From the NCBI GenBank assembly GCA_002633005.1, contig NMRA01000500.1:200943-264942 (forward strand): 64,000 nt of DNA, given 5' to 3'. This DNA is from Phoronis australis (lineage: Eukaryota; Animalia; Phoronida). A program made the translations under genes and the position numbers. How positions within the stretch are numbered: position 1 is the stretch's first letter; the number at the start of each line of letters is the position of its first letter. Positions 9,963-64,000 of this stretch are shown piece by piece. The notes under the pieces are model-generated. The model ran no database searches. It had not been told where the DNA came from and saw nothing but the letters and a program-made list of their open reading frames with translations.

Positions 9963-12049
9963 ATTATACCACAATATTAGCGTCAAATGGCAGATACAAC
10001 CGTGTAATAACCCATAAAGTTATCTCACTAGTGAGATAACGATTTGGCGGGAAACCGAGGACGGAGTCGAACCCGGGAGCCTGAAATTGCTGGTCACCGA
10101 CTTTACCACTACACCATGCAGCGGCTGACGTCATCAAGAGTGAAAATAGAATACTTAAAGGAGCATGCCACCCAAAAAACAACCTAATTTGTATCAATTT
10201 AGATCGAGTAGTTCTATTCCATAACGACACGTACGGTTGCGTTACCTGACACCTGACGGCAGACGGAGGTGTTGAAATTATCCAATGACGTCATCGGTTT
10301 TACACGCAGTCTGTTCAGCAGTTCACAACACGGGTTACTGGTGTCAGCTTATCGCTTGAAGTCATCGTTTAACACCAATAAATCATCAAACTTCGATGTA
10401 AAACTCTTAAAAATACACCGAGTTCTTATGATGTTGTTTTATTTCGCTCTTACGGATTTATTGGTATTTGGACACACCGTAGCTTACAAAGTTCGGCAAT
10501 AACGTCCGTAGCAGGAGTTTGGGTTCTGTTCAGAGATAATTTCGAAGTATTTTCCGTGAGATACAGACACGACAACATAGATCTGTGTTGTTTAGACTTG
10601 TGATTTTTTGAGTTCTAAACACAAAACGCTTGTTATCCTGGCCAGTGGCTCTCGGAACCCGATCAGGTCCGTCGCGGCCGGCCGCCGTTGACTCGTCCTG
10701 ATCCCATGCGGGCCAGTGGCTCGGAAGCTGATCAGACGTCACGAACATAAACCAGCCAAAGTTCAGTGGAAACTAAACTTCCAGTGAAGAAAATACTATA
10801 CTAGTGAGCCAAAGTAATGTGCACGTGATTATGTTGGTGAATTACCACGAAACTGCAAATCTACTTACTCGTCGGGGGCCGCGAACTGAATTCAGGTTCC
10901 GGCGCTTTGGCCACAGCACCCTCAGGGCACTGAGAAGTCGTGCATTGACAATCATTATTTGAGTATTGTAAATATAAATACTAAGATTCCCCTAACACCT
11001 GGCCGTGGGATGGAAATCGAGTTGTTTCACAACAGTTTCTGTCAGCAAACACTATGAGCTCACACGGCCTCGGTGTCCCGTCAATTAGTTTTATTGCACC
11101 TAAAGCCGGTAACGCAGTGATTTATTCGTTGCTGGCTTCTCAAATCATTTGCACTCACGAACACTCCAAAGGCATTACAAATTGTATCTAATGAGACAGA
11201 CTTTGTTTCAGTTTTATATAAGTATTGGTTAGGGTGAGAATAATTCATTTTGAAAAAGAACGTTCAGTAATAAACGCCAACATGGCAACTCGCAATCCCG
11301 ACTTAGGACGAGCTAGAGCTCATCAGTCCCGACTTCGTAGGTGGATCGTTAAGTTTTACAGGCTATCAATTCGAACAAGAATACAGTGAGTGAAGAAATA
11401 CTAGAGAACAAGCTCAGACAACGGAACGTATGGAGTTATTTGGTAAGCCGGCATTCGTCAGGCACTGTCGACGTCTGCAGGCCACAGATACGGAGATGTT
11501 TCACGGCCTCATACTTGCTATTTACAGCGTACATTTCATTCTTCACTACCATGAGCCACTTCCTAAGCATTTCGGACTCTCGAGAAAGTAAAAAAACGAT
11601 ATACCCGCTTTCCTCGCAGCTGCTTAGTTCGGACAAGCGGGAACGATGCACCGCAACATAGCGACATTCACTCTGCATATGAACCATTGACGTCCCTAGC
11701 GTCGTTTCTCACCTTCCTCACTGGTTAACGCGACACCTCTTGGCAAGGTAAGGTCGACCGTATGCGAGATGTGGATATAGACCGATTAAGACGGCAAAAA
11801 AGACTAATTAAATCGGGTGGCATTCTCCTTTAAATGAGCACGCGCAATAATCGCACGTTCAACAAACCGCATTGTACTGTGCTTATACGTTACGAAAAAT
11901 AAGACACATAATTTCCATAAAAATGATATCTTAATTCAGTGAAAATTTTCTCTCATGTCCTCTTACTTGTAAATCACCGATCTACAGTTTGAATGCGGGT
12001 ATCGTGTCGTCAGGATCTTTGACTTGAGAATTATATTCAGTTACCAGTG
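9963..12049 (-). mobile_element. Copy 2 of the SINE-containing ~410-bp repeat, split by a Kolobok-like insertion
   Basis: 9963-10158 and 11830-12049 align collinearly with 2212-2624. Confidence 0.85.
10159..11829 (-). mobile_element. Non-autonomous Kolobok-like DNA transposon (TTAA TSD, 15-bp TIR, THAP remnant), copy 1
   Basis: TTAA|AGGAGCATGCCACCC...GGGTGGCATTCTCCT|TTAA. Decayed THAP zinc finger on the minus strand at 11436-11690 (..SRESEMLRKWL..HLRICG). Empty site at 2400-2403. Confidence 0.88.
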
Positions 12050-23728: not shown

Positions 23729-24083
23729 GTAAGTACTAGACTTGACTTAAAGGGGCACTTCACTGTTGTCTTTGGTTTGTGTTTGTTGTTTGGAAATGAT
23801 CATTGTATGTCAAGATGCCTTTTATTAGTGCAACACACAATAAATGCCTATTGCCTATTGCATTAGTACAGCGTACATTCTGAGAGGTGCTATCCCTTTT
23901 CGAAAAATGCCCTGCTGGAAATTTGCTGTGATGTAGCATTTGCACAAGTTTGGATTTTACCTCACATAGGCTTGCAAGCCATTGTAATGAATCATAGATT
24001 TGGTTTTGGTGTACTTTCAGCCAATAACATTTAAGACTCGTTAAAAGTCAAATCCAATGGTGAATAGGAAACTAACCCATTAA

Positions 24084-25836
24084 AGGAGAATGCCACCCAA
24101 AAATCAACCTATTTTGTATCAATTTAGATCGAGTAGTTCTACTCCTTAACGGCACGTTCGGTTGCGTTACCTAACACCTGACGGCAGACGGAGGTGTTGA
24201 AATTATCCAATGACATAATTGGTTTCACACGTAGTCTGTTCAGCAGTTCACAACACGGGTTACTGGTGTCAACTTATCGCTTGAATTCATCGTTTAACAC
24301 CAATAAATCATCAAACTTCGATGTAAAACCCTTAAAAATACATCGAGTTCTTATAAAAACATGTTGTTTTATTTCGCTGTTACGGATTTATTGGTATTTG
24401 GACACACCGTAGCGTACAAAGTTCGGCAATTTACCAAGGTCCATAGCAGGAGTTTGGGCAGTGCTGTAGTGGGGCGTAAGTGCACGTAGGCGTAGCCAAC
24501 CACCTTTGGGCATTTGAACATAGCTCCTACGCACCGTAAGTTACGTTCAGTGCTCAAAGTGATGCAGTGGGCTTTGGGTGCCTGCTTACCTCTAATTTTA
24601 CCACTACAGCACTGAGTTTGGGGTCTGTTCGGAGATAAATTCGAATTATTCTTCCGTGAAATACAGACAGGAGAACCTAGATCTGTGTTGTTTATACTTG
24701 TGATTTTTTTAGTTCTAAACACACAAAACACTTGTTATCCTGGCCGGTGGCTCGGAACCCGATCACTACTGGGCCTGGCGTCGCGGTTGGGACTGGCACG
24801 AACAACCAGCTTGAGTTGGAAACTAAACCTCCAGTCACGAAAAGACTATAATAGTGAGCCAAAGAAATAATGTGCACGTAATTATTTATGTGAATTAGCC
24901 ACGAAACTGAAAATCTACTTACTTGTCGGGGGCCGGCGAAGTCGGGTTCCCCTTCTGCACACTGTCAGAGCAAAGGTTGTACAGTAACTATGATTTGAAT
25001 AATGTATTTGTATTTCTAAATAAAGATTCCCCTAACATGTGACCATAGCATATAAAATCGAGTAATTGTTTCACAACAGCTTTCTGTCAGCAAACACTGA
25101 ATTAGCATGCACTCACACAGCCTCGGTGCCCCCGGTCAATTACCTTTGTTGCCGCCATCAAAAGCCGGTAACGCAGAGGTTTATTCAGTGCTGGCTTCTC
25201 AAAACATTTGCACTTCAAGGCATTACAAACTATCTAATGAGACAGACTTTGTTTCAGTTTCATATAAGCATTGGTTAGGATGAGAATAATTCATTTTGAA
25301 ACAGAACGCAGAATAATAAACGTCTACATGGCAACTCGCCCTGCGCCAATCCTGACTTAGACAAGAGCTCATCCGACGAAGACTTCACGGGTCAGATCAT
25401 TAGGTGTCACAGGCAACGGAACGTATGGATAGTTCTTTGGTAAGCCGGAATTCGTCAGAGAAATCACTGTCGACAAAATGCCGGCCACAGACACGGAGAT
25501 GTTTCAATGGCCTCATACTTGCTATTAACAGCATACCTTTCATTCTTCACTACCGCGAGCCACTTCCTAAGCATTTCGGGCTCTCGAGGAAGTCGAAAAA
25601 ACGATATACTCACTTTCTTCACAGCTTCATAATTCGGACAAGCGAGAACGATGCACCGCAATATAGCGGCATTCACTCTGCAGACGAACCACTGACGTCG
25701 CTGCATCGTTTCGCACCATCCTCTCAGGTTAATGCGACACCTCTTGGCAAGGTGGGGTCGACCATATAAGAGGCAATGTGGATATAGACCGATTAAGATG
25801 GTAAAAAAGACTAATTAAATCGGGTGGCATTCTCCT
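24084..25836 (-). mobile_element. Non-autonomous Kolobok-like DNA transposon, copy 2
   Basis: TTAA|AGGAGAATGCCACCC...GGGTGGCATTCTCCT|TTAA (perfect 15-bp TIR). THAP remnant at 25440-25706 (-): CIVLACPN..FFRLPREPEMLRKWL. Collinear with 10159-11829. Confidence 0.9.
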
Positions 25837-26319
25837 TTAATACTGTGTCTGGCTCTTAATTAGAAAATTTCCAATTCACCCTTCTCAATAATATTCACAA
25901 AGCCAAAACGTATAGCTTGTTCTGGTTTGTGTTTTTCTTAAAATCGAGTTGGTAATGCAGAGTTTTTAGTGGACTCATTTTTCAAAAAAAATCCACCTGA
26001 GATGGGCAAAAATAATCTGGTCTTGTTTTTTTTTACTCATTGCTTGGCCAAATATGCATTTCAAACCTTCCTTACGTGCCTTGGTGCGGCTTTTCAGAAA
26101 CAAAAAAACACGACCTTGGTCCGAAATTGATGTGCTCAGTTGCTGTTTTCTTTTCTAGTCTGTGAGCGCAGGTCTCAAAAGGATTCGGAGTGAAGAGCAA
26201 AACCAACTTTAGCTTCTTTTTGACCTGACGAGACCTATTTAGTTAGTAAAATTGGTGATAAAACAAAAAATTGTTTTGCTTTGTTTTGGTTTGGTTATTT
26301 TGTGTTCTTTCCTTTGGAG

Positions 26320-29300
26320 CTGAAAGTTTTAGTGTCCAACCTTGCACATTTACCCAAGAACGAGTATTTTAAGACATATTTTTGTAAACATTTCCATGTG
26401 TGACACCCATAGGGCACATTTTCAGCTGGGACTATGGATTATCTCCCATGTGAGATTTTACTGACGTTTGGGATTAGCACCATAACATCCAGACAATTCA
26501 ATTATTGAATTAACGTGCCATTACTCATGTCATTTCAAAACCCCAAGAATGTTCGTGTCTGGTCTGCCTACAGTTGATATTCACAGTGACGCGCTCAAGT
26601 CAGGTAAAGATCTTCTTAGCAGTCCTTAGGTTACGGCACACCCATACCCTTTGTGCAAAAGTATGTGACTTTTAAATTCTGTCCATAAACATTATACTTT
26701 GTATCAACATTGTATGGTGTGAAAATATAAACTGTGATTTTCTTAGTCATTTACAGTTTTTAAGTCATACTTTTGACCTGTTACCATTTTGTTAAGATTG
26801 TTATATTTTGTATTACCGTACGGTATACCTATACTACAAACCTATTACCGTACGGTATACCTATACTACAAACCTATTACCGTACGGTATACCTATACTA
26901 CAAACCTATTACCGTACGGTATACCTATACTACAAACCTATTACCGTACGGTATACCTATACTACAAACCTGAAATCGATCCTCAATGATCGAAAATAAG
27001 GGGAAGCTTTGTGAGATGGCTTAAAGCCATTCTGCAATTAGAATTTTGCCATTGTAATACAGATATCACAGTTATTTTTGGTGTTAACTGAATTAGTCCT
27101 TATGACGGGAAAACAGCATTTTGTTTGTTTACTTTTTTCTTGTACCATGTTGTTCCTTATTTTGATTTAAGTGTACTTCTAAATGTAATATTTATACTTT
27201 CCGGTTAGAAATTATATACGGTTCAGACATTCAAGTGGTGTGCATAACAGATATGAGCGACTAAGCCTTGTTGTGATGACATAATATATGAACATTTTGT
27301 TAACATAGGTCACGGTACACTCGCACGATATCCCTGAGGAATCGGATTTGCAAGGTTAAACCTAACATTTATGCGAAAGAAATTGACAAAAACACATCTT
27401 ATTTTCAAAGTGTCGCCCAAAATTGAGAAAATAGTCACAAGTTTATGGAAAATGTGATAACATTATGAGCATTTTTGTACACTTTTGGAAGTGATTGGAT
27501 GGCTGGAAAATTGCCCAAAGATGAGGATGAACATGGAAGGTTCCAAAATAGCGGAGTTGCAATGCCGCCATATTGGAAATGGGTCAGAATGTTGCATTGT
27601 GGTTAAGCCGGTAAACAAGTACGTCGGCAAGCGTGGGGGCGAACCGGCCACAGGGAGGTTATACGTGTTGTGTGCCTGGCATGCAATAATACCAGTTAGC
27701 GAGATAAAAAATTTAGTTACTACCTGTCTCCCAAGGATCAAGAACTGCGTTAAACATGGGTCAGAGACATTAGTAGAGATGGTAGCAAAGGACGACTTTG
27801 TGAATTCTTTCCGACTTGGTAGCATAAAATATGCAGCGCTCATTTTGAGGGCGGCAAGAAAACGTATCTTGGAAACTGCCCAACAATATCTCCCTTCAAA
27901 GAAACAGTAACAAAATACTCTACGGCGGTTGGTAGTGAAAAAAAAACTTGTTTTCGCTTGACCAGAACCAAGCCAACATGAGCAATTTTGAGGATAATGC
28001 CTCTGCACAATCACCTGTTCTGGGTCAACACACTTAACGTACGCTCACTATATGTATTTCGCGCTAGGATAAAGCGTGCAGAATATTATTATTTACTTTC
28101 TACAAAATTGTGGTGCATTGCTATCAAAATTCGTTGTTAAATTACGATCATTTTTCATAAAATTGTGTTGGAAGTCCCAGGGCGAAATCTTGCCGACAAA
28201 TGCGTAGCTGCCGGTCTCNCTGAAAGTTTTAGTGTCCAACCTTGCACATTTACCCAAGAACGAGTATTTTAAGACATATTTTTGTAAACATTTCCATGTG
28301 TGACACCCATAGGGCACATTTTCAGCTGGGACTATGGATTATCTCCCATGTGAGATTTTACTGACGTTTGGGATTAGCACCATAACATCCAGACAATTCA
28401 ATTATTGAATTAACGTGCCATTACTCATGTCATTTCAAAACCCCAAGAATGTTCATGTCTTGTCTGCCTACAGTTGATATTCACAGTGACGTGCTCAAGT
28501 CAGGTAAAGATCTTAATAGTCCTTAGGTTACGGTACGCCCATACCCTTTGTGCAAAAGTATATGACTTTTAAATTCCGTCCATTAACATTATACTTTGTA
28601 TCAACATTGTATGGTGTGAAAACATAAACTGTGATTGTCTTAGTCATTTTAAGTTTTAAAGTCATACTTTTGACCTGTTACCATTCTGTTAAGATTGTTA
28701 TATTTTGTATTACCGTACGTACGGTGTGCCTATACTACAAACCTGAAATCGATCCTCAATGATCGAAAATGAAGGGGAAGCTTTGTGAGATGGCTTAAAG
28801 CCATTCTGCAATTAGAATTTTGCCATTGTAATACAGATATCACAGTTATTTTTGGTGTTAACTGAATTAGTCCTCATGACGGGAAAACAGCATTTTGTTT
28901 GTTTACTTTTTTCTTGTACCATGTTGTTCCGTATTTTGATTTAAGTGTACTTCTAAATGTAATATTCATACTTTCCGGTTAGAAGTTATATACGGTTCAG
29001 ACATTTAAGTGGTGCGCATAACAGATAGAGGGACTAAGCCTTGTTGTGATGACATAATATACGAACATTTTGTTAATATAGGTCACGGCACTCTCGCACG
29101 ATATCCCTGAGGAATCGGATTTGCAAGCCTAAACCTAACATTTATGCGAAAAAAATTGACAAAAACACATCTCATTTTCAAACTGTCACCCAAAATTGAG
29201 AAAATAGTCACAAGTTTATGGAAAATGTGATAACAGTATGAGCATTTTTGTACACTTTTGGAAGTGATAGGATGGCTGGAAAATTGCCCAAAGATGAGGA

Positions 29301-29322
29301 TGAACATGGAAGGTTCCAAAAT
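26320..29322 (+). repeat. Direct duplication 26320-27549 / 28220-29322 across a single-N join (probably allelic overlap)
   Basis: Near-identical copies with scattered substitutions; copy 2 begins immediately after N28219. Confidence 0.85.
26811..26970. repeat. 32-bp minisatellite x5 (TATTACCGTACGGTATACCTATACTACAAACC)
   Basis: Units start at 26811, 26843, 26875, 26907 and 26939; each contains the palindrome TACCGTACGGTA. Confidence 0.95.
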
Positions 29323-48018: not shown

Positions 48019-48900
48019 TTATGCAGTTCCCTTGGACAGTCCTTTCTTTGCAAACCATTCATTACTTTTGTCAGCAGCTATGCCTTCATCGAGCAATGAG
48101 TCAGCATTTGGGTCTTGCCTGGACAATTCACGGAATGCTTCATCTCCAACAAAACAGATTTCATGTCCATCGGGATCTGCCAAAATGACCACTTGAACAG
48201 TGGCTTTTCCTGGAGTGTCCAAGCTAACCAAAGGCGTAAGAATTGTCTGATCAGCGTCTTTCATTTTCTTCTCGATTTCCGGAAGATCATTGGCTGGGCA
48301 GGAGAAGGCAATCCTTCCATATGCCTTGGCATGGTCAACCACTTTACCAGTGTCACAAAGTTCCAGCTTACACTGGTTCTCGGCAAATCCCATCAGAGCA
48401 CGCTTTTCATCTCGCAAATATAATTTCATTCCGAGCAGTCCTTCCCAAAAATCCACAGAACGTTGCAAATTCGAGGACGCCAAAGAAACAGTCTGTACAG
48501 GATCTTCCACCGCATCTTTATCCACCAAGACAAATTTATAACCTTCCACCGCCAGAATTATATTACCAGAATCGTCGACGCTGGATGGCCATTCACCCTT
48601 CTGTGCATTCGCCACCGCTTGCTTAGAATGAATAGTGATGCCTCTAAAGTCGTCCCCCATTGCATAGGTACCGAGTCCATAATTATAGGTCAGTTCTAGT
48701 ACAAAGTGGTTGTCTTCTGATCCATAGCCGACCATGGACTTACTCCATTTTCCGTCGTACGGGCCGTTACATGCAGCTTTGCAACCTTCCTCGAATTCCT
48801 CGTGACGAAGAAACTTCATGCCCAGGATGTTGCGAAAGAAACTGGCCGTTTTTGTGCGATCACCAATTTTGAAAACGAAATGAAGCGCTCTTCGAGACAT
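48019..48900 (-). CDS. GLOD4: Glyoxalase domain-containing protein 4, intronless, 293 aa
   Basis: Single [121 protein letters not shown]. Confidence 0.97.
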
Positions 48901-49757: not shown

Positions 49758-52700
49758 ATGGAGACAATGCCTTCTACAGGACCAGTGGAATGTCCTCCAC
49801 CAGGATTTGGTGTGGTAATTACTTATTGGTGCTTGATAACATGAAAGTAAATTTCATGTGTAGACAGTAGTGGTCCTCTACGGTATATTATTGGTGCCAG
49901 TTGTTTAAATTTGAGTATCCAGCATAAATTAGTTCTACAGTCTCTAATTTCTATTCAATTTAGGGCTATTTTTAGTGGCACACCACACCATATCATGGGT
50001 CAACAACTGATCCAGCACCAATTAGCAAAAATGATTAAAAAGGCTACTGATTTGTTTCTATTATCTTCCTGTGAAAGTACATTACAAAAACTCCTGTTTG
50101 ATTTCAACTCCAGGCCACAGCGCTCTCTAAATTAGGTATGGTACCAATATCAATCTAGCTGTTAAGCATTCCCGCAGTCTTTTGTCCAGCGTCATAACTC
50201 GCAAGCCAACTATCTAACATGGTTAAAGGAGTTTCTAAAACCATTCATCAACAAGAACCAGAGAACCAAAACCTAACGCATATCTATGTTTGTTCATTGT
50301 TGTCATATTTTTGATAAAAATCACTGTAAGCTAATGTTTTATAAGGAATTCAAGTTTAGAAGCCAAACCATTCCCGATATATCAATTTAGCCAGTATTTT
50401 ATTGTTATGAAGCCATTGCTAATGCAGTAATTGCTCTGCTATGCACAATAAGACATTAGATCAAGTTTGCTGTTTACTACATTTCTTGTACAAATTAATG
50501 TAGTTACGTGAAACAAGCTGAGGTTCTAATGAAAAGTACAAGTGTTTTAATAAAAAACACAAAATTGTACATAACACAGTTACAAATTGTTTTCATGTCA
50601 GAGAATTAATACCATGTTGGCCATGTCTTTCTACAGCTAGATTCATTACTTCACACTTAAGTTAATGTAGGTTTAAGTTGGTGATTGTTGGCATGTTGGT
50701 GACACTTTGAGTTCATATAAACATTGTGTTAGAATTTATGTATTGCTGTTTGTAAGATCAAATATGCCGCTATTCGCTTGAGCAACCACAAATTAAGGGT
50801 CCAAATCTGGGTTTTTGTTTGTGATTCCCTGCGCTTTTTACTCTGTTGTGTTTCAGACCCAGTTCACAATTGAGGAAGAGAAAGCCATACAGGCAGCCCT
50901 GCAGCAAAAACTTGGACCAGAGTTCATCAGTCAACGCCAGGGGGCAGGAGGACAAAAGGTATGTTCAAGCATTTGAAGTCAACCATCCCTTCTTGCTATA
51001 AGTTATGGCGTATTCTTAGAGACTGTATTTTTACAAAAAGGAGATATGTTCCAGCAGGGATGTAGAGCGTAAGACCAAATTTCTGACTTCATGAAAAAGA
51101 TCCCTGTACTCAATATAAACTGCACTTCATTTTTTTTGCAGTTAGCCTACATTGAAGGATGGAGAATTATTAATCTTGCAAATGAGACCTTTGGTTTCAA
51201 TGGCTGGTCTCACTCGGTCACTCATCAGACTGTAGGTAAGAAAAGTCTTTTTAAGCCACAGACTATCGCAGTATTTCATAAGCTGTGTAAAAACAGGAAG
51301 GGTTTTCAGAGCTGCCTTGGTCTTTGTTATGTTTTCTTTCGGGGAGGGGACACAATGTTGTTTATTTCATTTTTTAGCCCACTTAAGAGGTTATGAGAAA
51401 CCCCTCATCTTACCTCACTTCCGTAAGTGATGTAACTGTCAATATTGTGTTGACCTCTGAGAGGTCAGGTCTTCAGCAACTGGAGCCACTTAATAAACTT
51501 ATGGGTCATTTCATTGACCTTCCACCTCACTTCATAAACCCAGGAGAATATGGTATGCTAACAATACTAATACTGCCTTTTTATAGGATTGTTATTAACA
51601 AAATAATTGTCACATTCCATGAAAAAATTAAATTCTTTTATTTTGGATCCTTACATATTGTGCCCATTCATTCAGTGCATTGTGTGTTCAATGGTGTCAA
51701 CATGTGTCAAGAAGATCGCAATTTTCACTTCAAAATCATGTCATGTTTCGAATGAGGTATGCGTCTTTTTTATGCAAGTAATTTTTGCAAAGATGATAAC
51801 ATTTCAAATGCTGTGTTTGTCTTTGCAGATTTCATTGATCATTACAACGGGCGATTTTATGTGGGTGTGAGCGCATTTGTTAAGGTTCAGCTAAAGGTTT
51901 GTGACAACTCAATAATTAATATGTTATGTTTTGAAGACCACGCCTATTGTATTTGTAAACCAGAATTAAAAGCCATTTCAATGTCATCAAAACCCTCTTT
52001 AGTAACATTATGACTTCTTGCAATAATATAATAAGCTTTTAACGGAAAGGTATGAAAATCAAAAGTGGCAAATTATTAGTTTTAGCAATAAATTGAAGAA
52101 TTTTTTCAGCATTTGTGAATGTCAAGTATTTCATATTCTGCTCAGAAATAAATTGTATTTTTCCACGTGACATTACTTCTTGTGTTCATTTCTGCACCAA
52201 AGCTGCATTTTGTTGCATTTCACATTCAAACAATCAACTATTGAATAATAATTTCTTTTCTTCCAGCTAGTTGGTTTACCACCTGCGGTTGATAACTTCA
52301 ATCTTTGGTTGAAAACTTAATTACTAATGTTTCCAGGACGGTGCTTTCCATGAAGATATTGGTTATGGAGTGTCCGAAGGAATGAGATCTAAGGCACTGT
52401 CTGTGGAGAAGGCTCGCAAGGAAGCTGTCACTGACGGTTTGAAGAGAGCCTTGAAGTAGGTGTTACATAACAATTAAAAGCGCCCGCTTTGTTGTAAAAA
52501 AGGAATTTATGTAGACCTCGCACTGCTATGAAACTGAAACAGTCTTCGACTTGTTCCATACTGAGATTAAGAGTGATTTCTGGACTTGGGAAGAGCTGAC
52601 AGTTATTTTGTGCACCGAGCTTGTTCTCAAGCAACAACAGAATATCTCCCTGGCACAGCAGTCATGTTTAATTTTTGGGACCTTTTAAAGTGCAGTGATT

Positions 52701-55700
52701 AATGGATAAAAGTACTGTCACAATGCAAAAGCAAATTTCAGCAGATTTAGGACAAGCTAACAGTCTGTAGTATCGCTTGTGATCAGCAGCTGATTATTGT
52801 TTGATAACGTTGTTGTCCTGTATTACACTGCAATAGCACTCTCCTTTGTCCCGAACACCTCATTTTGGAAATCAAGCACATTTTTGTACCTCTTATTGAT
52901 GCTGGGAAGGTGAAGAATTTCACATCAGACATTCACGGGTATTTGTCCAGTTTATCAAACTTTTTCACGTCGGAGTTGCAGCCCACAGCACAGCAGTAAT
53001 ACTTTGTTGGCATTGGAAGCATGAATAGAGTAATGCAACTGAGAAAAACTTGTAAAGAATCAGACAACAACAAAAAACATATGAAACTCCAATTGCACGA
53101 AAACGAGGCAGCAAATGTGCCTGACAAATGTTTACGGCATTGTGGGTAAATACATCGAGATTTGAGTGTCGCTGTGTAATCCAGGAATGCCCTATTGCTC
53201 GAATGGATCAGCTATTGTGCACATTGAAACGCATGGCTAAAAAGGTTAACAAATTCAGTTTGCATTTAATTACAAGTTTCCTATGATAATAAAATGGTGT
53301 CATCAAGTGTTACTCTATAACAATAGATGCATTATAATGTCTCATAATCGCCTTGGCAACATTTTCAGGTCATTTGGTAATGCACTCGGTAATTGTCTTG
53401 GGGACAGGGATTATTTGAAGTTGATCAACAAAGCACCTAAAGCCGTAAGTTGTGCATTATAACTCAATAATCCAGTGTTAATTGAGAAGATGATTGAAGT
53501 GCCTGAGTTCTTAGTGTCTGCTTTCATCATTATTGTTACTCCAGCTTCTTTCATTTGCCATGATATGAAATGTGCTCTAAATACTTTGCATGTAAATGTT
53601 TAGATTTATGTGTGTGCAGCTGAATGTCAATCAGTTTGTTTACAATGTTTAAGGCATTCGATCACACGTTATGTATAATTCAAAAAGCGGTCTGAGCAAT
53701 TTTTTCATGAAGGTAGATGCAATAATTTCAAAACGTTAAATTTGAAGTGTGAGTTTCCATAATTTTTGCAACATTTTAAAGTTGACATTTTTGGATACGT
53801 GGTTCTTTGTCACCAACTGAGAGCTGAGAAGTGCTTCATGATCTCCGGTCTATAAACAATGTTTTTAATTTGCTTAATTTGGCATGGATGTTGCTAAACT
53901 CGTATTTATTCAGGAGACAGTTGTCACAGAGCAACTAACACAGAATAGCTGTTCAGGTGAAAGTGTGTGTGTGTCAACACGACTCACCCCTAGCAAGTTG
54001 ACACTGTGATGGCCATTTTTGACATTGGTTTATGAGGTAGAACAAGTCGTTTTAGTTTCAACTACAAGTCCACTCACAAACTGGGGCAGGACAGAAGCGA
54101 TTATCTCAGTTACCCTTTCGTAATAGCGTATGTACGAGTATTTCGTTAGCATTCCCCATAGCTTGGGTGTTTGCTGTTTTTTATGAAAGCATTCATACAC
54201 AGCCTTTGTGGAAATGACTCATGCTGATCTAGTTTGCGAAAATGCAACAAAAGTGGAGCACGTCACTGTTTGACATCACCATGACTACTGCTCCCCATGT
54301 AAAAACAGCTCAAGATTCGGAAATGACATGCAATTCATTGACCGTTCACATAAATACTTTGACCAGGCATTGAAGTCCCATGCACTGCTAGGTAGGTCAA
54401 GCTGGTGGATCAATCCATTAAATCCATTTCCGTGTTCATTTGTGAATGGTAACTCACTGTATTAAAGAACCAAAACAAACTAAGGATTCCTCCCCGAAAC
54501 ATGGACTAAAACTATTAGTTTTCAAAGATTGGAATTCCAAGGACTTGACTATAGCTGGAAATATATATTTATTCCAGGCCAATTTTGACTCATAGCTAAT
54601 TGGCCAGATTAGTCCTGTATCCAGCCACTGGATTAAGTATTTCTTTGTCTTGAGTTTTGAGATTACCCTTCATATTATTAGTGGTGCTCTTATGTCACAC
54701 AACATTCTTTGTTACTTGTCCAATAGGCATCAAGTCCTGTGGAGATGTCTTCACTCAAACGCAAAGATGCAGACGCAGCAGTTGTAAAAGCGAGGTACAC
54801 TCGAAGGCCTGTTCAACAAACAGAGCAGTTCAATTTGAATAAAGCATCAACAAGTTCAGATAACACCATCTTCGTGCAAGATAACTTGAATCGTGTGATT
54901 ACTCACAGCCACAAAATGGAATCAAATTCGACCTCCACCTCAGTGATTACTGGTGAAGAGACAGAAAAAGTCACATCATGCACTAATGTAGTGAACACCC
55001 GCAGTAAGTCTCTTGGCGAACACCATTCTAATGTGACATTCGTGAAGCCTCTGCCGAGGTCAGATACGAAAGGCAGTGGACGCAGGTCAGTGAACGAGTC
55101 TGACACAAGTATAACGGAAGAGTTTGTGGCTGGTAACATTACGGAAGACGAGGCAGAGAGAATTCAAAGAAAACTGCGACAAAAGCAAAAACAGGAAGAG
55201 TTTCAAATCAAGATGAAGCAGAATAAGATTAAATCGCCTGTGTCTACAAGTAAGTAATTTAGCAAATGATGATGAATTGAAATTTTTGCTTCATTAATTG
55301 TGATTTTGCAGTCCGTCCTTTTATGAGATAGTTTATGGAGTGCTGTAGAGCTTAAAAAATATTTCATGGAGAGCAGTGTTTGTCAGAGGCAGCAAAACAT
55401 TGACTTACAGCGGCTACAAGTTCGCCTTTCATCACAAAAATCAAGTTGTGATTTAGACCACTTATGGTTATTAAGATGGTCTCGATTTGTTCCTTTTAAT
55501 AGTCAAACTGGAGGTGATGCCAGGCCTTCGAAAGAACTGACAGTTTGTTAGAGCTTGAGACCTGTCTCCATAAGTTGGTTTGTCACAACATGTCATTTTA
55601 TTTGACCAGCATGATCTCAAGAAATAAACAAACATCTTTGCACACCTGGAAATTACCTCCACTTTTGCAAATCCAGAAATCACTACTCATCCTAGTAGGG

Positions 55701-56881
55701 AACAAGTTGAGACCAATTTTATAGCAGCAAGTGGTTTACATACAAAATAGCGTCTTGAACAAAATGCAGGTTTAAAGCTACTTAAATTGAAGGTAGAAAG
55801 TTTTACCCAGCTGCTTACGTTTGAGAACCACCTGCACAACATTTGAAGTAAAGAATTTCAGTAGGTGTTTTTAAACTTTTTGGCGCGTTTAAGTGACTTT
55901 TTATTTATCTTGTGGATCATAACTATACATATTAACATTTAAAAGATGATTCTGGGTGACTACTTCAAAAGGCAGCAAATTAACCTAACTTCCTGAGCTC
56001 TGAATAGCTGACGTTCCATCTGACTTGAATATTTCACAATCCCATATTTCAGGTGTAGCTAACCCCAAACCCTGTTCAACACCCACTTCTGTTGATGTAA
56101 GAAAGCAAATGAATCAAACCACCAGCTCTCGCGAGTCACTACTGGCTGAGGATAATTACATAGGTCGGTGTCTCGTGTTAATGATTCATTTGCAGTTGTG
56201 AGCTAAACTGGTTAACTTGTCTCATTTAATTTTGCCTTTTTCAGGTTGAAAATTCCTGGTCGTTTTGTAAAACATTTGCACAGATAAGTTGAGTTCCACG
56301 GGGATGGTTCTGTAGGATGGCAATCTGTAAAACACCATCTTTTGTATTAAATGGTTGATTTTGTTCATTTCAATTTTTTACCCATTTCACCATGATGGCA
56401 CCCACGTAGATCAGTTTTAGATTCTGTAGACTGTTCATTTTATTATTATTTTTAAGTCGTTTGAGAATATGATACTCTTTAGTACTCCATGTTCCTTCAG
56501 TGGTAAAGATTTAAGAGAAGAGAATTTTTCTGATGAAAAACATTTACATTATTTATTATCTTTTGGTGAACACATTTTCTCTCATGTTTTACTATCATGG
56601 ACAAAATTTGCATTTTTAAGAGAATGTTTACTGCATTAGAAAGACATAAGATGGTTTCGAAAATTGACTTGTCTACAACAATCAGAAAGTATATTGCATT
56701 TTGACTGTATTGCATCCTTCCAGATGATCCAGAGTTGTGGAATCAGACTTTGGAACTGGATGATCTGGAGAAATTGCAGGAATCGGAAAACGAACAGAAT
56801 CTGCGATCATCTCCACGTTTTTCTCAGAAACACCAGACTCACCACGGCAAGAAGAGAAAACTTGAATCTCCTGCTAAATGA
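49758..56881 (+). CDS. RAD52: DNA repair protein RAD52, ~435 aa
   Basis: Exons 49758-49814, 50857-50958, 51142-51235, 51829-51896, 52337-52455, 53369-53444, 54727-55249, 56053-56163, 56724-56881. Motifs [92 protein letters not shown] and a C-terminal KKRK NLS; AATAAA at ~56930. Confidence 0.96.
52840..53170 (-). mobile_element. THAP-domain DNA transposon remnant in a RAD52 intron
   Basis: Minus strand [36 protein letters not shown]; homologous to 39960-40350. Confidence 0.65.
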
Positions 56882-58687
56882 CCTTTGACCTTCCAACCAG
56901 CTGTGGATTAGTTTGTTAAGTAATAAGAGAATAAATAATAAAATAAATGCAACACTTAGCCACTAACTGATGCTATTAATGTGAAATTTTTATAAAGTAA
57001 TAATGAATGATCACTTGGGAGCACTTTGTGCAACAATAGTGTTAGTTTCAATTGCTAAGAAGGTTTGATTGGCGGCCTTAATGTGCCATCATGTTAATTT
57101 TGTGTAAGAGAATACACGTGTGTGTGTTTCTTGATGAATTTTGTTAATGTCTATATTTATTCTCATTTTACCACATTGTTAACATCTAATTGAAAACTTC
57201 GTAATGAATTATTAAGGAATTTCAGCTTGTCCAGTCGCTTTAGTTGAGATTTCTTTTTGCTTGCGTCATTTATTTTGTGCTCTATGTCTTTCATCTCAGA
57301 GGACTTCAATGTGCAAAGTCACTTTATGGTTACTCTTTGCTTGCTTTGTGCTATTTTATGTGTAGGAAATTGAGAATCTCTTTAGGGCTTGATAATGAGG
57401 ATTTAAATGGTACCGTAGTTGAAAACATTTGAGGTTAAGGCTGCTATTATCCATGTTTCAGCCAAGAAGTAAACTTTTTATTTCGACAACTTATTACAAT
57501 AGAATTAGTTTCTGTTTGTTCCTTATTCCGATGGGAAGAGATTACTAGGTTTGGAAAGAACTAACAGTTTGTTATTATTTGAATCCATGCTCGACACAAA
57601 AATATATGCTGTGGCAAGAAGCCAACTTGTGGGGCTTAATCTCCAGCAAAAACTAAGTGTCAGTTTGCCGAAAAGCTGAAATCATCTCCCATTGGACTAA
57701 CGAACAATTTGAGGCCACATTGATGAAAGCCAATCGGCTGTGGTTTCTTTAATTGGAGACTAATTTCATGGTAACTGGTCCAGATCAGAAGTTGTTTCTT
57801 GGGATGGAAGTATGTTTATTGCAACTTTTAAGTTGCACACATAAATGTGTCTGAGCTTTCTTGGATCAACTGATTCTGAGGATGTAGGTGTGGTGTTTCA
57901 CTGGTTTTCGTGTCATTTAAGCATTTCTTGAGCGGCTTTGCCCACATCAGAGACTTTCATAAAGCATACCAAATGATAAGGAGAGAAACATAGCTGTTTT
58001 TACTGCTGTCTAGAAGACATGGAAACTATTTCCCTTGATGTAGCAACTGTATCATTGTATTAAGCCAATCCCCTCCAGATTAAGTTTCTCGTATTGGAAA
58101 TCCCCCCCTCTGTAACCAATGGGGATGCACTCACTGCCCTATTGGCTGCTGAGGTTTGCGCAAGGTACCATCCATGGGTACTTCAGGTCTGCCTCAGCCA
58201 TTACAATTTTATTTCCAAGTGTCCATGAAGATTCTGTGACATGAACAGCTCATAACCCGTGAGTGGAAAATTGGCTGTGACCTAGGAGAGCAAAGCAAAC
58301 TGTCTGCTAATCACAATTTAACTCCAATGAGTGGTGCCTGCAGACAAATACTTCATGTTGATTATGGAGCAATTACAGCTTGGTAAATAAAAACATAAAA
58401 ATGACATTTCTCTTGATTTTGTCATTACAACAAAATGTTATTAAACTTTTATTCCAATTCTTTAAACTTTGATAACATCCATACAACTATATTGCAACAC
58501 AATATCCATATTAACTCTCACAGAATTCTTGTATTCTGTGTATCACATGTCTTTTTTCAAAGCATTCTTTGTCATAGATATGCCTTCATCTCACAACTTG
58601 AGCAATGAAGTAAATAAATATTGGTCCATAGCCTTAAAATCCTCCTGTTGAGTATCACCATCTCTCAGTCTTTTCAAAACAATCCTT

Positions 58688-61162
58688 TTATATATTATCC
58701 ACAATGGTCTTGTCCGAGACAGTGTTGAGTGAATGATTCCTGTACATTCCACATTTTCCTAAATGCTGAAACAAAAAAGTGAAACGTGAATTTCTCGAAG
58801 CAGATCCGGGGAGTGCTACCCTTGGCTACACTAACCTTTGGTTAGTCTATGTGAGGTCTACCGAAGCATTATTTCACCTCAATCATTAATGAAGTCATTA
58901 CATTGTAACAAAACATTGATTTGTCCATTGTAATGCTCAGATGAGATTTTATGAAATAGTACCAAGAATCTACCAATAGGAGCAGATGCATAAGATTTTA
59001 GGTTTGTGAAATTTTTAGACATTTAAAGCTAATTTGGTAAGTACTCCAAAGATGGCAATGATGAAGTCAATGTATTGACCAAATACAAGGAAAATAGTCA
59101 GAGTAGCAATCAATAAAATTGTGTAAAATTTGGATTTATACTTGATTATTGTTTTAAAAGAACTCGGAATAATGCTACAGGGGAATTCGGTCTTTGGCAA
59201 CAATACAGAAGTTAAAAATTCGAAAGTATTGCTGTGCACATTTAACAAAGGTGTATACGAACAGTTATTCAAAATGTCCTTGCAGTAAATGACAATGGCT
59301 TACCTCGCTGAAGCCCTGAGATCTGCAGTAAAATTGGGACGGCATGTCAAATACCGATGGAGGTAAACCACCGTATGTATTCGATGTTGTCTGAAACATA
59401 GGGTTTTGCTTCTTCTGTCCGTATCCTTTGAACCACTCTGAAAGGAAGATCAATTCATTGTATTGACATGTAGACTAATATTACTGAGCTAGATTGTTCA
59501 ATAAAATGTGTCGATATGAGAGAATGCTTACACTACAAGCAAGCATATTATTGAAACATACGCATTAGACAAGACCTCCAGCTTGGAAATTTAGTGAAAT
59601 TATTAATAGTGAATTTTAGGCTTGTCACAATAAAGAAAAGCCAGTTCAATATTCCTTGAGGCCATGCTCCTATTAAATGGCCCAGCAGGCCAAGCCACTA
59701 ATATCTTAGCCTGATCTCAAGTGCTAACCAATTCTTTGTTCTTCATAAGCCCGAAAAATCCCTTCCAGTTTTGGTAATGAACAGGTTGAGACCAGTTTTG
59801 TGAAGGTAACAGCTTGAAACAAATAAAAAGCCTATCAAAGCTGGGCTTATAGCACCTATATACAGCCAGTTGCATATAAAAGGACTACTAAAAATGACAC
59901 AGCACTAAACGTATTCAAATAGATGCCAAGGTCAAGTAAAGAGAAGCATTTTAAGATGGAGTACAAATGCAGATGTGTAGTTTTTATCAATACTCTGTAC
60001 CAAGAACCATTAGCAAATATAGACTAGAACAAATGTAACTTCTATAACTTTTCAGATATTTATAGTTGCAATCAAGAATACACACCGTCTGTGATTGGTT
60101 CAGGTTCAGGTGCTTTCATTGAGCGTGAACAAGAGAAAATAGGATTACCAGGTAAATAACAACCACCTGAAAACAAAAGCAATCTATTAACACACCAGTC
60201 CATGTAGAAATTGCAGCTGTGATGAGCAACTTTAACAAAACAGTTTTGTAAAGTCAATGCTTGCTGTTTTCAACATCACATTAGGTATGTTTTGTTAGAG
60301 AATACATTAAAACAATACAAACCAACCTTGGTATGGTAACATCAAGCTGCATGTTCTACAGGACTGTGAAAACAAACAAAATGTTACCATACCAGGATTG
60401 TTAAATCTTTCAGGGATATTGAATGTTCTCATATATTCCTCAGTTTTCGAACCTTTGGGGACACCACCAGGTCCAACTTCTGTTTGTTGAGTAGTCTCAG
60501 CATTTCCTTGAGCAGCACTGGCCTCCTGTAATATGAAAGTTTATTTTTGTATTACGAAACAGAACATTTGGAACGAAAAAACCAAGCTAGTACATACATA
60601 GTCAGTAAGATTGGTTGTGTACCACAAGAGAAAGAGTATCGGAACTTCACATGACAAATTAAAAATCAAAAACTTCTGGAATCCTCCAGTAGTTGTGGAG
60701 ACGCTCAGCTATTTATATATTGCGGAATGGCAATTTGAGAATGTTTTTAAACAAACACTTTTGCTCTTGTAGCCCCTGGTTTTGAGAAAAATTTTTATCT
60801 AAACGCCTGGTTCTCAAAATCACGGGTCACCAACACATGATGAGAGACCATTTTCCTGAAGTGAGTTCCAGATTTTTTTTTTGGAGTTGTTTCACGCCAT
60901 ATAATGAATGATTAAGTCGGAGCCCGGGGGTCCATGTCTCCATGCATACTTATAGTAGTCAAGCCCGACCCTGGGGCAGAGAAAAGCAGTCAAATTTCCA
61001 AATACTTCAAATCCTAAGAATAGTTAGGGTGAATTAGCCGATCGGATTAGGCAGCGCAAGGGCGATGTTCCTCCAACACAACTGATTTACTTTATGATTG
61101 AAAAATCTATTATTCCACGCTTGATGTAGATTGCACGATTTCGCTTCGACATAACTTACCAT
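58688..61162 (-). CDS. PIERCE1: PIERCE-family (C9orf116/UPF0691, FAP182-like) microtubule inner protein, PIERCE1-type isoform, 115 aa
   Basis: Exons 61162-61160 (ATG|GTAAGT), 60525-60393 (..KTEEYMRTFNIPERFNNP), 59437-59304 (EWFKGYGQKKQNPMFQTTSNTYGGLPPSVFDMPSQFYCRSQGFSE), 58765-58688 (HLGKCGMYRNHSLNTVSDKTIVDNI*). Matches PIERCE1 LPGRFNNPGWFRGY..YRTSNQAYG..GMFRNNTLN (from memory). AATAAA on the minus strand at ~58450. Confidence 0.92.
60086..60166 (-). CDS. PIERCE2: Alternative 81-nt exon encoding the PIERCE2-type motif (GGCYLPGNPIFSCSRSMKAPEPEPITD)
   Basis: TTTTGTTTTCAG acceptor, G|GTGTGT donor, symmetric phase 1-1. CYLPGNPIFSC resembles PIERCE2/C15orf65 CVNPGNPVFSC (from memory). Confidence 0.75.
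60327..60363 (-). CDS. Alternative 37-nt exon (SCRTCSLMLPYQ, phase 0 to 1), mutually exclusive with 60525-60393
   Basis: TTTTGTTTGTTTTCACAG acceptor only 29 nt after the exon-2 donor; AAG|GTTGGT donor; same phases as exon 2. Confidence 0.6.
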
Positions 61163-61282
61163 TTTGTTAAAGTAAATAGTCCCTTCTGTATCACTCGAAC
61201 GAGCAGCCAAAAATGAATGTACAGCCAGGTGGTTGAGAAAGCAATGAAAGAATGTTATGATGACGTATATTTATTGACGATT

Positions 61283-61296
61283 GTTGCTAAGGACAG
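61283..61296. promoter_or_regulatory. RFX X-box-like motif ~120 bp upstream of the PIERCE ATG
   Basis: GTTGCTAAGGACAG; one strong half-site, at a position typical of ciliary genes. Confidence 0.45.
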
Positions 61297-62934
61297 TAGT
61301 GCCGCCTTTTGGTTGAAACAATCGTTTTAGTGCAGTTTAGAATAGAAACCATTTGTCGTTTAAGAATTTGTTCTATAAAAGTGTAGTAAAAATGGAAATT
61401 AATAGTAAATATTACAGTAAGTTTTTTTAAAAATTTAGGTCAGTGACGGATGTGACCGAGTGAACGCTATGGCACTTTCGATAATTTCCGTTCAAGTTAC
61501 GGAGATATCCGAGATATTCTGAAGTGAATTTGAGGCCATAGAAGGCCGAGGTGTTCACTGAGTCCTGCCGCATATATTCGGCCGTATACCGTTGTGAAAA
61601 TGTTTCCGTGACCCACTGTTAGCGTAGCATTTCTGATAAGTTCAGGTTATGTTAATTTTGCGAGTGTTTTGAACACATTTTTATTGATACTTCAGAGGAG
61701 ATTAATCAAAGCTATAATGTTGAAGCAGACCCCCGGCGGCACAATCTTGAGTGTTTCGTCAGCTCCGCTCCGTGCAAATGAGGAAATAAATGAAGCGATT
61801 TCGGCCGCGGAGGTTCTACCATGCTCATCTTGTTGCCTACCGCCAGCCGGCAACTGACATGCGAAGCGTATACGTGTGCCATTTTCGAATTCGAAGTTTT
61901 AGACCTGGTCCGCGAAATTCAGTAACAGTCGGCAATAAACTTTGCCATCGGCCCGGTTTTCAGCGGCTGATCATCGAAGTCCTTGTGAATCCTCATCACG
62001 CCTAGGCCATAATGACCGTGACTTAGGCCGTGGCCGGGTGAGCCCGATTAGGGAAGGCCTAATTTGATTTTCATTTTATGACCAGCAAGCGAAACGCAGC
62101 TTTCAACTGAACATATGGTTTTGATTGGCAAATACATGTGCTGTCGTTTTTTATAAAATTTAAGAAAATTTATTTATTCTTGTAATATTTAAAACTAGGG
62201 TGGCCTCCAGTGACAGTACTGGTTGTCAGAGGCCCCCAATGAAATAGGTAAACCACGCCAAAAACCCGGCCTCCTAAATTTTAATTGCGACGGCCGACTC
62301 AGGAGGATCACCAGACTGTGAGACGGACCTAGTTGTCACTAGCTATTTCTGAAATAAAATTCCTTAATGAGTCCAACATTCCTAAAGATTGTAAGTCGTT
62401 AAAAGTCCTTTTTTATAATTTGCCGATGCAATTAATGAAAAACAGAAGAAATGACAATGCGTGTGTCAGTCAAACTTTTCCCGACCCCGCACTAGTCTCT
62501 GAATACTGTTATTTACGAAGTAAATTTTCCAAAGTCGCTAGAGAGCTCAACGTAAAATCTCGAGTACACTTTGAAAAAATTAAAGTAGTCACGAATTCGG
62601 TCACACTTTCTTGCTAGGAAAACTGAGAATTATTAATTGGCTTTCGAGTTCGTCCGTTTAGTGGTTGGTTGCATGTGTACTAGTGACTTTGCGAAGAGTG
62701 ACGATTGAATCAAATTAGGCTGATTTAGTCAACTACACTACTTATAATAATTCTTTATTATATGTTTTGGTGTTTTGTTCGAGCAAACTGTCGTGTTAAG
62801 CCGGTAAGTTGTAAAGGAAGCTTAAGTTTTTAACCGAGTGCACTCGTCTGCCTGTACGGCTCTAGTCCCGACCTGCCTAGTTCATAAATATGTTACAGAA
62901 GTGCCCTGGACATGATTATGTAAGTAAGATATAT

Positions 62935-62948
62935 GCGCCCTCTAGTGG
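62935..62948 (-). promoter_or_regulatory. CTCF core motif
   Basis: Reverse complement CCACTAGAGGGCGC, a near-consensus core. Confidence 0.55.
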
Positions 62949-63173
62949 TCAAGCTGTGTATTACGTATGGAATTTTCCTATGATTTCTGAGTCCTTTGGA
63001 TATGGCCAAATATGGTCAGAACCTAGGAGTTATGGGCCTTGCCCTTCAGATCGTGTCTGATTGGTTGAAATTGTGTACTTAAGCTTTGTCTCTGACAGAC
63101 ACGAGGAGTCCAGTCGCAGAGTTCAACAAGCAAACATTAACACCTTCACTCACACCAAATTGCAACTGTTTGT

Positions 63174-63253
63174 GCAGCTTTCGGGCTCCTCCCGAACTTG
63201 GTTGCCAATAGTTTAGCCCCAGCAATTCTCGGGCTCCTCCCGAGCTTGATTGC
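63174..63253 (+). other. Tandem pair of bulged stem-loops (candidate cis-regulatory RNA element)
   Basis: 63174-63205 GCAGCTTTCGGG-CTCCT-CCCGAA-CTT-GGTTGC and 63222-63253 GCAATTCTCGGG-CTCCT-CCCGAG-CTT-GATTGC; all differences preserve pairing. Confidence 0.7.
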
Positions 63254-63376
63254 ATCTCACCTTTCGGATCTGAATAACCAAATTGCCCCGTTCTTGCACA
63301 CACGACTATTAATCAGCGACTGCCGGCTTGCCCGTGTATCAGAACTGTATAAATCACAACGCTGCGATACTAAATC

Positions 63377-63396
63377 ATGGAACAACTGGATTGCTT
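63377..63396 (+). CDS. Putative first coding exon (MEQLDC..) of an unidentified gene continuing past the window
   Basis: ATCATGG start context and TT|GTAAGT donor; CpG-rich upstream region with several donor-like sites (61645, 62037, 62803). Confidence 0.3.
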
Positions 63397-64000
63397 GTAA
63401 GTGTGAAATATTGTAGTTATATATTCTTACAATAAACCTATGTATTATTCACCAACTTTTCGTTTTCAATATCACCCTCAGTCCGCACCGGGCTCGTAAA
63501 ATCGGGGCGCCTTGGTCGTACTGAGAAACCGCCCCCGTTACACTGGTGCACGTGGCCCGCGGATATGTGCGAGTGATGTTGAAAAGCAGTAAACTAAAAT
63601 TTCTTACCGTCAATGCCTATTAGTGCGTTAATGACATTCTTTTCGTTGCTCATGCCGTTGACGTCTTGTCACGCTCGCTGGGTGATGTTTGGAATTAATT
63701 AACTCACATAGCAAACGTCTGTTGAAGGTTGCGTGTTCAAAGTTCGCAAAACGTAATATTTCAAACTCATAGTAGCGACATTGAACACATTTTTGTCAGT
63801 ACTCCTGAGTTGATTTTCCGTTGAGGTTTCACTAAATACCCTTGTCGATTATCAATTCACAACTTTGTCGTGTGTTGCTGTTAATTTCCATGGATAACCT
63901 TGCTTTCGCGAAACTTGCAATATTCAGGTGGCGATAGCTTGAATGTGGGAAGTAACGCCCACTTGTTGCCCAATTAATATTTTCTAGAAGTAGATTCATG

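Follow-up and report, generated by a model that had tools for sequence, protein, structure and literature searches.

Tandem bulged hairpins in the phoronid Phoronis australis probably belong to the LTR of a retrotransposon rather than to a host 5' UTR

We analyzed a stretch of 64,000 nucleotides from Phoronis australis (GenBank assembly GCA_002633005.1, contig NMRA01000500.1, positions 200,943 to 264,942 of the forward strand), which we call the window, and in particular two tandem hairpins near its end that a preliminary description had placed in a probable 5' UTR of a host gene. The structure is real and has probably been under selection, but it should probably be reassigned to the LTR of a retrotransposon (Table 1). 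Our best guess is that the element's RNA would carry the hairpins at its 3' end as a pair of binding sites that aid export, stability, or packaging, and we put the probability of this at about one half. The earlier idea of a selected, double protein-binding RNA element survives in that form, while its host-gene setting does not. Our results have no bearing on host gene regulation at this locus. Rather, they provide a small duplicated unit with built-in covariation and an unchanged loop, bulge, and wobble, which is a ready probe for a protein that handles such RNA. They also warn that a hairpin which looks convincing as part of a "UTR" in an invertebrate genome can be part of an LTR.

Table 1. 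Features of the putative LTR and its surroundings, in window coordinates
Feature	Position	Strand	Remarks
Putative 5' LTR of a multi-copy LTR retrotransposon	62891-63542 (652 bp)	+	TG...CA; terminal hexamers complementary at 5 of 6 positions
Reverse CCAAT box (presumed)	63060-63064	-	From reading the sequence; we take the motif to be such a box
Upstream tract, gapped complement of unit 2 and its 3' flank	63063-63111	+	A lead only
Extended hairpin 1 (predicted)	63164-63213	+	7-bp basal stem, 63164-63170 with 63207-63213
Hairpin unit 1	63174-63205	+	6-bp stem, 3-nt bulge, 6-bp stem, 5-nt loop; in putative U3
Hairpin unit 2	63222-63253	+	Folds as unit 1; in putative U3
TATAAA, predicted LTR promoter	63348-63353	+	Predicted start near 63377, from the spacing
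7-codon ORF from the ATG at 63377	63377-63400	+	At predicted cap site; unsupported as a gene start
AATAAA, then CA and a T-rich tract: predicted poly(A) site	63431-63467	+	Motif and drop in sense depth
Putative internal leader	63543-64000	+	No gag start seen up to the window end
PBS-like tract	63544-63556	+	1 nt past the LTR end; resembles the complement of a tRNA-Gly 3' end

The two 32-nt units are repeated with a spacing of 48 nt and are 84% identical. For each of them, the MFE and centroid structures agree on the fold in Table 1, with the bulge on the 3' side, and together with self-comparison of the sequence this confirms the units, the period, and the 12-pair bulged fold that had been reported. 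On the + strand, the units fold with -28 kcal/mol (z -2.76; equalled by 2 of 200 shuffles), while the fold of the minus strand is weaker (z -1.78; equalled by 12 of 200). All 12 pairs are kept in each unit on the + strand and only 10 and 11 of 12 on the minus strand, so the wobbles do favor the + strand. Folding the + strand as DNA yields an identical structure, so the fold does not distinguish RNA from single-stranded DNA. Nor is the region unique: in sliding 80-nt segments, its best z-score was -2.8, and another segment, on the minus strand, reached -3.15. In the window, we find the 15-nt core twice, versus an expectation of 0.17 occurrences. The only other near-identical tandem 32-mers in window positions 1 to 62,000 and beyond form a 32-bp array that barely folds.

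The units differ at five positions (4, 5, 7, 23, and 28 of the unit), all by transitions. The pairs change from G.U to A-U, from C-G to U-A, and from U-A to C-G, and two of these are double changes. The loop, the bulge, and the U6.G27 wobble are identical, so this part of the preliminary description (that every difference preserves pairing while these features are invariant) is borne out. How surprising is this? We simulated five random substitutions, with 400,000 trials per setting. If all substitutions are transitions, then 16-19% of trials leave all 12 pairs intact, which makes the keeping of pairs weak evidence by itself. It is the two double changes that carry the signal: an outcome in which the pairs are kept, the five changes all fall in stems, and two of them are double changes occurred in 0.26-0.30% of trials in the transitions-only setting and in 0.056% of trials with 67% transitions. 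CpG decay can be rejected as the origin of the five changes, as all five positions are outside CpGs and each unit retains both of its CpGs. Taken as sequences, the units look as though selection has probably maintained an RNA structure of the + strand.

Retroelements pass through single-stranded copying stages, and it could be that a chance hairpin was duplicated and that its pairs were then repaired by template switching, without any selection. According to PMC8794818, template switching can create and maintain stems and can mimic compensatory changes. On the other hand, a single switch across both double changes would erase the bulge and the U.G wobble, and both of these persist in both units. 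Two separate short switch events would hence be needed, and we doubt this explanation.

To see the setting of the hairpins, we mapped RNA-seq reads of three stranded runs labeled with this species, along with one contig set, onto positions 61001-64000. About one fifth of each raw run was sampled, and 620, 512, and 590 reads (1,722 in total) and 14 contigs were placed. As a check of strandedness, an exon of a PIERCE-family gene on the minus strand has depth in one mate direction only. Because these are reads of other individuals, a fixed difference may be allelic, whereas allelism cannot account for mixed flanks. Just before 62891, 17, 34, and 91 reads of the three runs have loose ends, whose sequences agree at only 0.46, 0.61, and 0.69; behind 63542, there are 21 such reads (agreement 0.48) and one contig. 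The units sit in a dispersed multi-copy repeat with sharp common boundaries. The preliminary description had itself set a multi-copy transposon repeat against its proposal, and this is essentially what we see, LTR-like rather than the subterminal repeat of a DNA transposon.

We consider it very likely that this 652-bp repeat is an LTR because of its TG...CA termini, its TATA box, the AATAAA with a T-rich tract, the TGG tract behind it, and its mixed flanks. TG...CA ends with short inverted termini are part of the definition of an LTR (PMC8220671), and the layout of TATA, AATAAA, and T-rich tract has also been described for LTRs (PMC2664473). Most likely, it is the 5' LTR of an LTR retrotransposon that runs off the window. 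We found no gag, pol, or second LTR in the window, which ends 458 bp past the LTR, and no second copy of the repeat within the 64 kb. Around this single LTR, we also see no target site duplication of 4-6 bp, which is what one expects of a 5' LTR. We compared the PBS-like tract by eye with the tRNA-Gly 3' ends in the supplement 1 table of PMC13524379, and it matches the last 7 nt exactly. With its TGG at +2, it matches at 11 of 12 positions with one gap, or with 4 mismatches if ungapped, where the limit used in that paper is 2, and these are not tRNAs of the host. The window contains no tRNA genes. In one of the three runs (34 reads, agreement 0.61), most of the reads that extend beyond 62891 have a run of purines right before it, which may be a polypurine tract; this is a majority of reads and not an assembled element. 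Reads over 63550-63599 carry at least 5-8 differences, which suggests that they stem from other copies.

Two further observations concern the structure of other copies. First, one contig joins the LTR start (62891-62914) directly to 63376, which gives a short LTR without most of U3, and the window sequence has a 4-base direct repeat at both break points. Second, the putative leader also yields minus-strand RNA, which appears to be spliced from two donor-like sites, near 63607 and near 63489, to one shared outside exon; in two of the runs, 17-20 reads support each site. This suggests an antisense promoter in some copy of the element.

A role in a host 5' UTR, in translational control or autoregulation, is not borne out: the units lie upstream of the repeat's own TATA box. 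The ATG at 63377, which had been suggested as the gene start, is indeed 124 nt downstream of the hairpins (about 125 nt had been stated), but it lies 29 nt behind the TATA box and opens only 7 codons. The sequence does contain possible splice sites, an acceptor-like one near 63099 and a donor-like one at 63397, and some host transcripts probably carry copies of the LTR. Nevertheless, there is no splice joint among the 1,722 reads placed on 61001-64000, and none of the 23 sets of loose ends that are listed (of 59) falls at these two sites. Also, the upstream flank has no read depth at 62201-62800, and coverage begins abruptly at 62891. Given that the repeat is dispersed as well, we view a host UTR element as very improbable.

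Sense RNA covers the hairpins at a depth of 45-155. From positions 63201-63300 to 63401-63500, which lie on either side of the AATAAA region, mean sense depth falls from 69.9 to 14.1, from 55 to 11.2, and from 155.3 to 13.2 (5.0-, 4.9-, and 11.8-fold in the three runs). Because of this drop, we infer that the hairpins are near the 3' ends of RNAs, which come from the 3' LTRs of other copies or from read-through of solo LTRs. U3 is transcribed solely from the 3' LTR. If this applies here, then the hairpin pair would mark transcripts that reach the end of the element, and the hairpins of the window's own copy, in a 5' LTR, are probably not transcribed.

How might the hairpins have evolved? A short unit was duplicated, and then the copies diverged only in ways that keep the pairs. 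As this divergence keeps the stems while the loop, the bulge, and the wobble stay fixed, selection may act on the shape of the RNA and on a few recognized bases, and a protein may contact the RNA at the invariant loop, bulge, and wobble. The likeliest candidate for this protein would be the element's own Gag or nucleocapsid, or else a host factor for export or stability. The strand that is favored by the wobbles is the sense strand of the LTR, as judged from the TATA box, the AATAAA, the PBS-like tract, and the purine run before other copies, which supports such a role. As a counterpoint, the covariation rests on two units, and there is a copy without hairpins (the contig that joins the LTR start to 63376).

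The units could also matter as DNA. They span 95-174 nt before the TATA box (the hairpins end 95 nt before it), and the presumed CCAAT box is nearby. Enhancer repeats are common in U3. The 15-bp core, which does not vary, has the form of an inverted repeat around a 5-bp spacer and might bind a dimeric transcription factor, with the duplication doubling the site. But binding of a duplex leaves the compensation across a 3-nt bulge unexplained, as well as G.T wobbles that function on just one strand. Also, all five changes lie outside the core and still keep the pairing. An enhancer seems unlikely to us.

It may also be that hairpin 2 does not dominate among the folds. When all of U3-R is folded, hairpin 1 has a predicted pair probability of 0.94-0.99, while hairpin 2 competes with an alternative helix and has a pair probability of about 0.25, or 0.83-0.96 if the pair span is capped at 150 nt. 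In the alternative, the upstream tract at 63063-63111 would open hairpin 2 by way of its loop, either within one RNA or between two RNAs, so that the RNA would be a two-state switch (one versus two hairpins) or would have a dimer contact. Over 9 bp, positions 63103-63111 can pair with the loop and upper stem of unit 1 as well as of unit 2, and a match of this kind is reached by 14 of 1000 shuffles and by 2 of 444 tiles of the window. Such a switch or contact would account for the invariant loop, and the sole listed raw-read variant in 63041-63126 falls in a small loop. The alternative fold is predicted at -66.7 kcal/mol versus -63.5 with hairpin 2 forced, and among 1000 shuffles of a 111-nt segment that was chosen post hoc, 3 attain the duplex. 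On the other hand, with the whole upstream U3, 42 of 500 shuffles reach it, and 21 of 150 shuffled upstream segments also lose a hairpin. Furthermore, the probability of the alternative ranges from 0 to 0.98 depending on the boundaries that are folded, and the helix is without covariation. We regard it as a lead and not as a finding, and a switch or dimer contact as rather improbable. If twin protein-binding hairpins and the antisense tract formed a two-state device in U3, which would switch the RNA between translation and dimerization or packaging, then control at the 3' end would be doing a job that is otherwise known from 5' leaders. This, too, we regard as rather improbable.

Variation among the transcribed copies is relevant to selection on the hairpins. 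We considered 40 of 153 substitutions and 12 of 26 indels. Among those listed, 26 substitutions are within the LTR (22 supported by raw reads and 4 essentially in contigs only), as are 10 indels, which merge to 7 places. None of the 29 listed places in the LTR with raw-read variants is inside the 64 hairpin bases, versus 2.85 expected (P = 0.047). Among the listed variants, the test gives P = 0.099 for substitutions alone and P = 0.145 if contig-only variants are included, so this depletion is suggestive only. The sole listed variant within a hairpin, at 63191, is from a contig only and changes G-C to G.U, which keeps the pairing. In the basal stem of hairpin 1, a read variant at 63209 changes G.U to G-C. 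Just before unit 2, an extra base after 63221 is present in 55 of 86, 48 of 71, and 109 of 141 reads, which makes the period 49. By our reading, this base lengthens stem 2, and a variant at 63254 retains the added pair as a wobble. Finally, ten reads of one run align through the last base of hairpin 2 and then diverge.

To our knowledge, the cis-acting RNA signals of LTR retrotransposons have been characterized in only a few models. The RcRE of HERV-K and the RxRE of HTLV-1 are large multi-stem elements. They resemble the hairpins in being structured cis-elements that the RNA carries at its 3' end, in the U3R of the 3' LTR. The RcRE is a functional RNA, and each of these elements is bound by a protein that aids export and stability (PMC3185809). 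Unlike our hairpins, they are vertebrate retroviral and their binding partners are Rev-like proteins, whereas the invertebrate element has just two units of 32 nt, for which no adaptor is known. The SL-C and SL-D of MoMLV (PMC3247676) are tandem hairpins with conserved loops, too, and have been proposed as a scaffold for Gag and dimerization. However, they have kissing GACG loops and lie in the 5' packaging region, whereas the loops of our hairpins consist of pyrimidines alone, are unable to pair with one another, and are located in U3. By analogy, then, the likeness is to RcRE and RxRE by position and to the MoMLV double hairpin by design.

Other systems share fewer features. The U3 half of the bipartite primer-binding site of Ty3 is functional as RNA (PMC5371799), so a functional RNA sequence within the U3 of an LTR retrotransposon has a precedent, but it pairs with the primer tRNA, and we saw no such complementarity for our units. 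The dumbbell pri-miRNA of foamy virus (PMC6950176) also has two adjacent hairpins in U3. These are Pol III cassettes of 111-128 nt with a terminator and Dicer-length stems, whereas our hairpins take up 80-90 nt with stems of 12 to about 20 bp and have no T4 run before 63457. The ENE of Copia93/Evade (PMC12501189) is a repeated structure near the 3' end of an LTR-retrotransposon RNA that aids stability and mobility, but it requires U-rich internal loops and sits between the ORF and the LTR, while ours has a one-sided 3-nt bulge and is in U3. We rejected membership in the gammaretroviral SL-C/SL-D, foamy dumbbell, and ENE groups, as well as in the retrozymes, as their defining features are absent here. 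For retrozymes, Rfam shows no hammerhead, and the core motif is absent from the + strand of the repeat. We also dropped a reading as Pol III A and B boxes, given no strict B box and no terminator, and, on inspection by eye, readings of the loop as HDV-like or as an anticodon mimic. In the part of the literature that we could search, with subscription papers and bioRxiv supplements mostly outside its scope, we did not find a structured U3 element in an invertebrate retrotransposon.

Searches for related families gave little. Rfam has no hits at the gathering score in the window and none at E ≤ 10 in 63140-63290, and on 62600-63700 it has just two chance-level matches, both outside 63140-63290. 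There is thus no match to any family (IRE, SECIS, histone stem-loop, ribozymes, or viral cis-elements), in line with the preliminary description of the loop as not IRE-like and of SECIS and histone stem-loop hallmarks as lacking. A scan for the tandem core found 111 stretches in metagenomes (80 of them listed) and 3 in viral contigs, and none of these 114 loci has a blastn match to the LTR at E ≤ 1e-3. The best look-alike (L112) was rejected, as it folds differently and belongs to the coding sequence of a phage: at 2983-3080, it has an exact 49-bp tandem duplication, which lies at the end of the phage open frame and is possibly an assembly artefact. A scan for single units had no matches in viral contigs and two GC-rich matches of 19-33 nt in prokaryote genomes, which lack LTR context and which we judge to be chance. 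That the metagenome, viral, and prokaryote collections hold no relatives says little, as they contain little animal DNA.

We also noted other contents of the window. RAD52 (+) and the PIERCE-family gene (-; Pfam PF14892) lie tail to tail at 52337-61254. An intronless open frame for GLOD4 (48019-48897, minus strand) is possibly a retrocopy; among the 120 relatives listed, its closest are from a nemertean (71%), bivalves (69-70%), and a brachiopod (68%), which fits a lophotrochozoan host without a close relative in that collection. Two overlapping frames at 3273-4072 have no Pfam match and presumably resemble the C-terminal part of a Penelope-type element. A tandem duplication of 1.8-1.9 kb (26320-29322) is 94-98% identical, and one of its copies contains a perfect 5-copy array of 32 bp (26811-26971). 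A dispersed repeat of about 1.7 kb is present at 10155-11833 and at 24080-25840 and is 84-97% identical in blocks. Finally, there are long, near-perfect inverted repeats at 2770-2831 (29-nt arms with a 4-nt loop) and at 60323-60400 (20-nt arms that are 38 nt apart).
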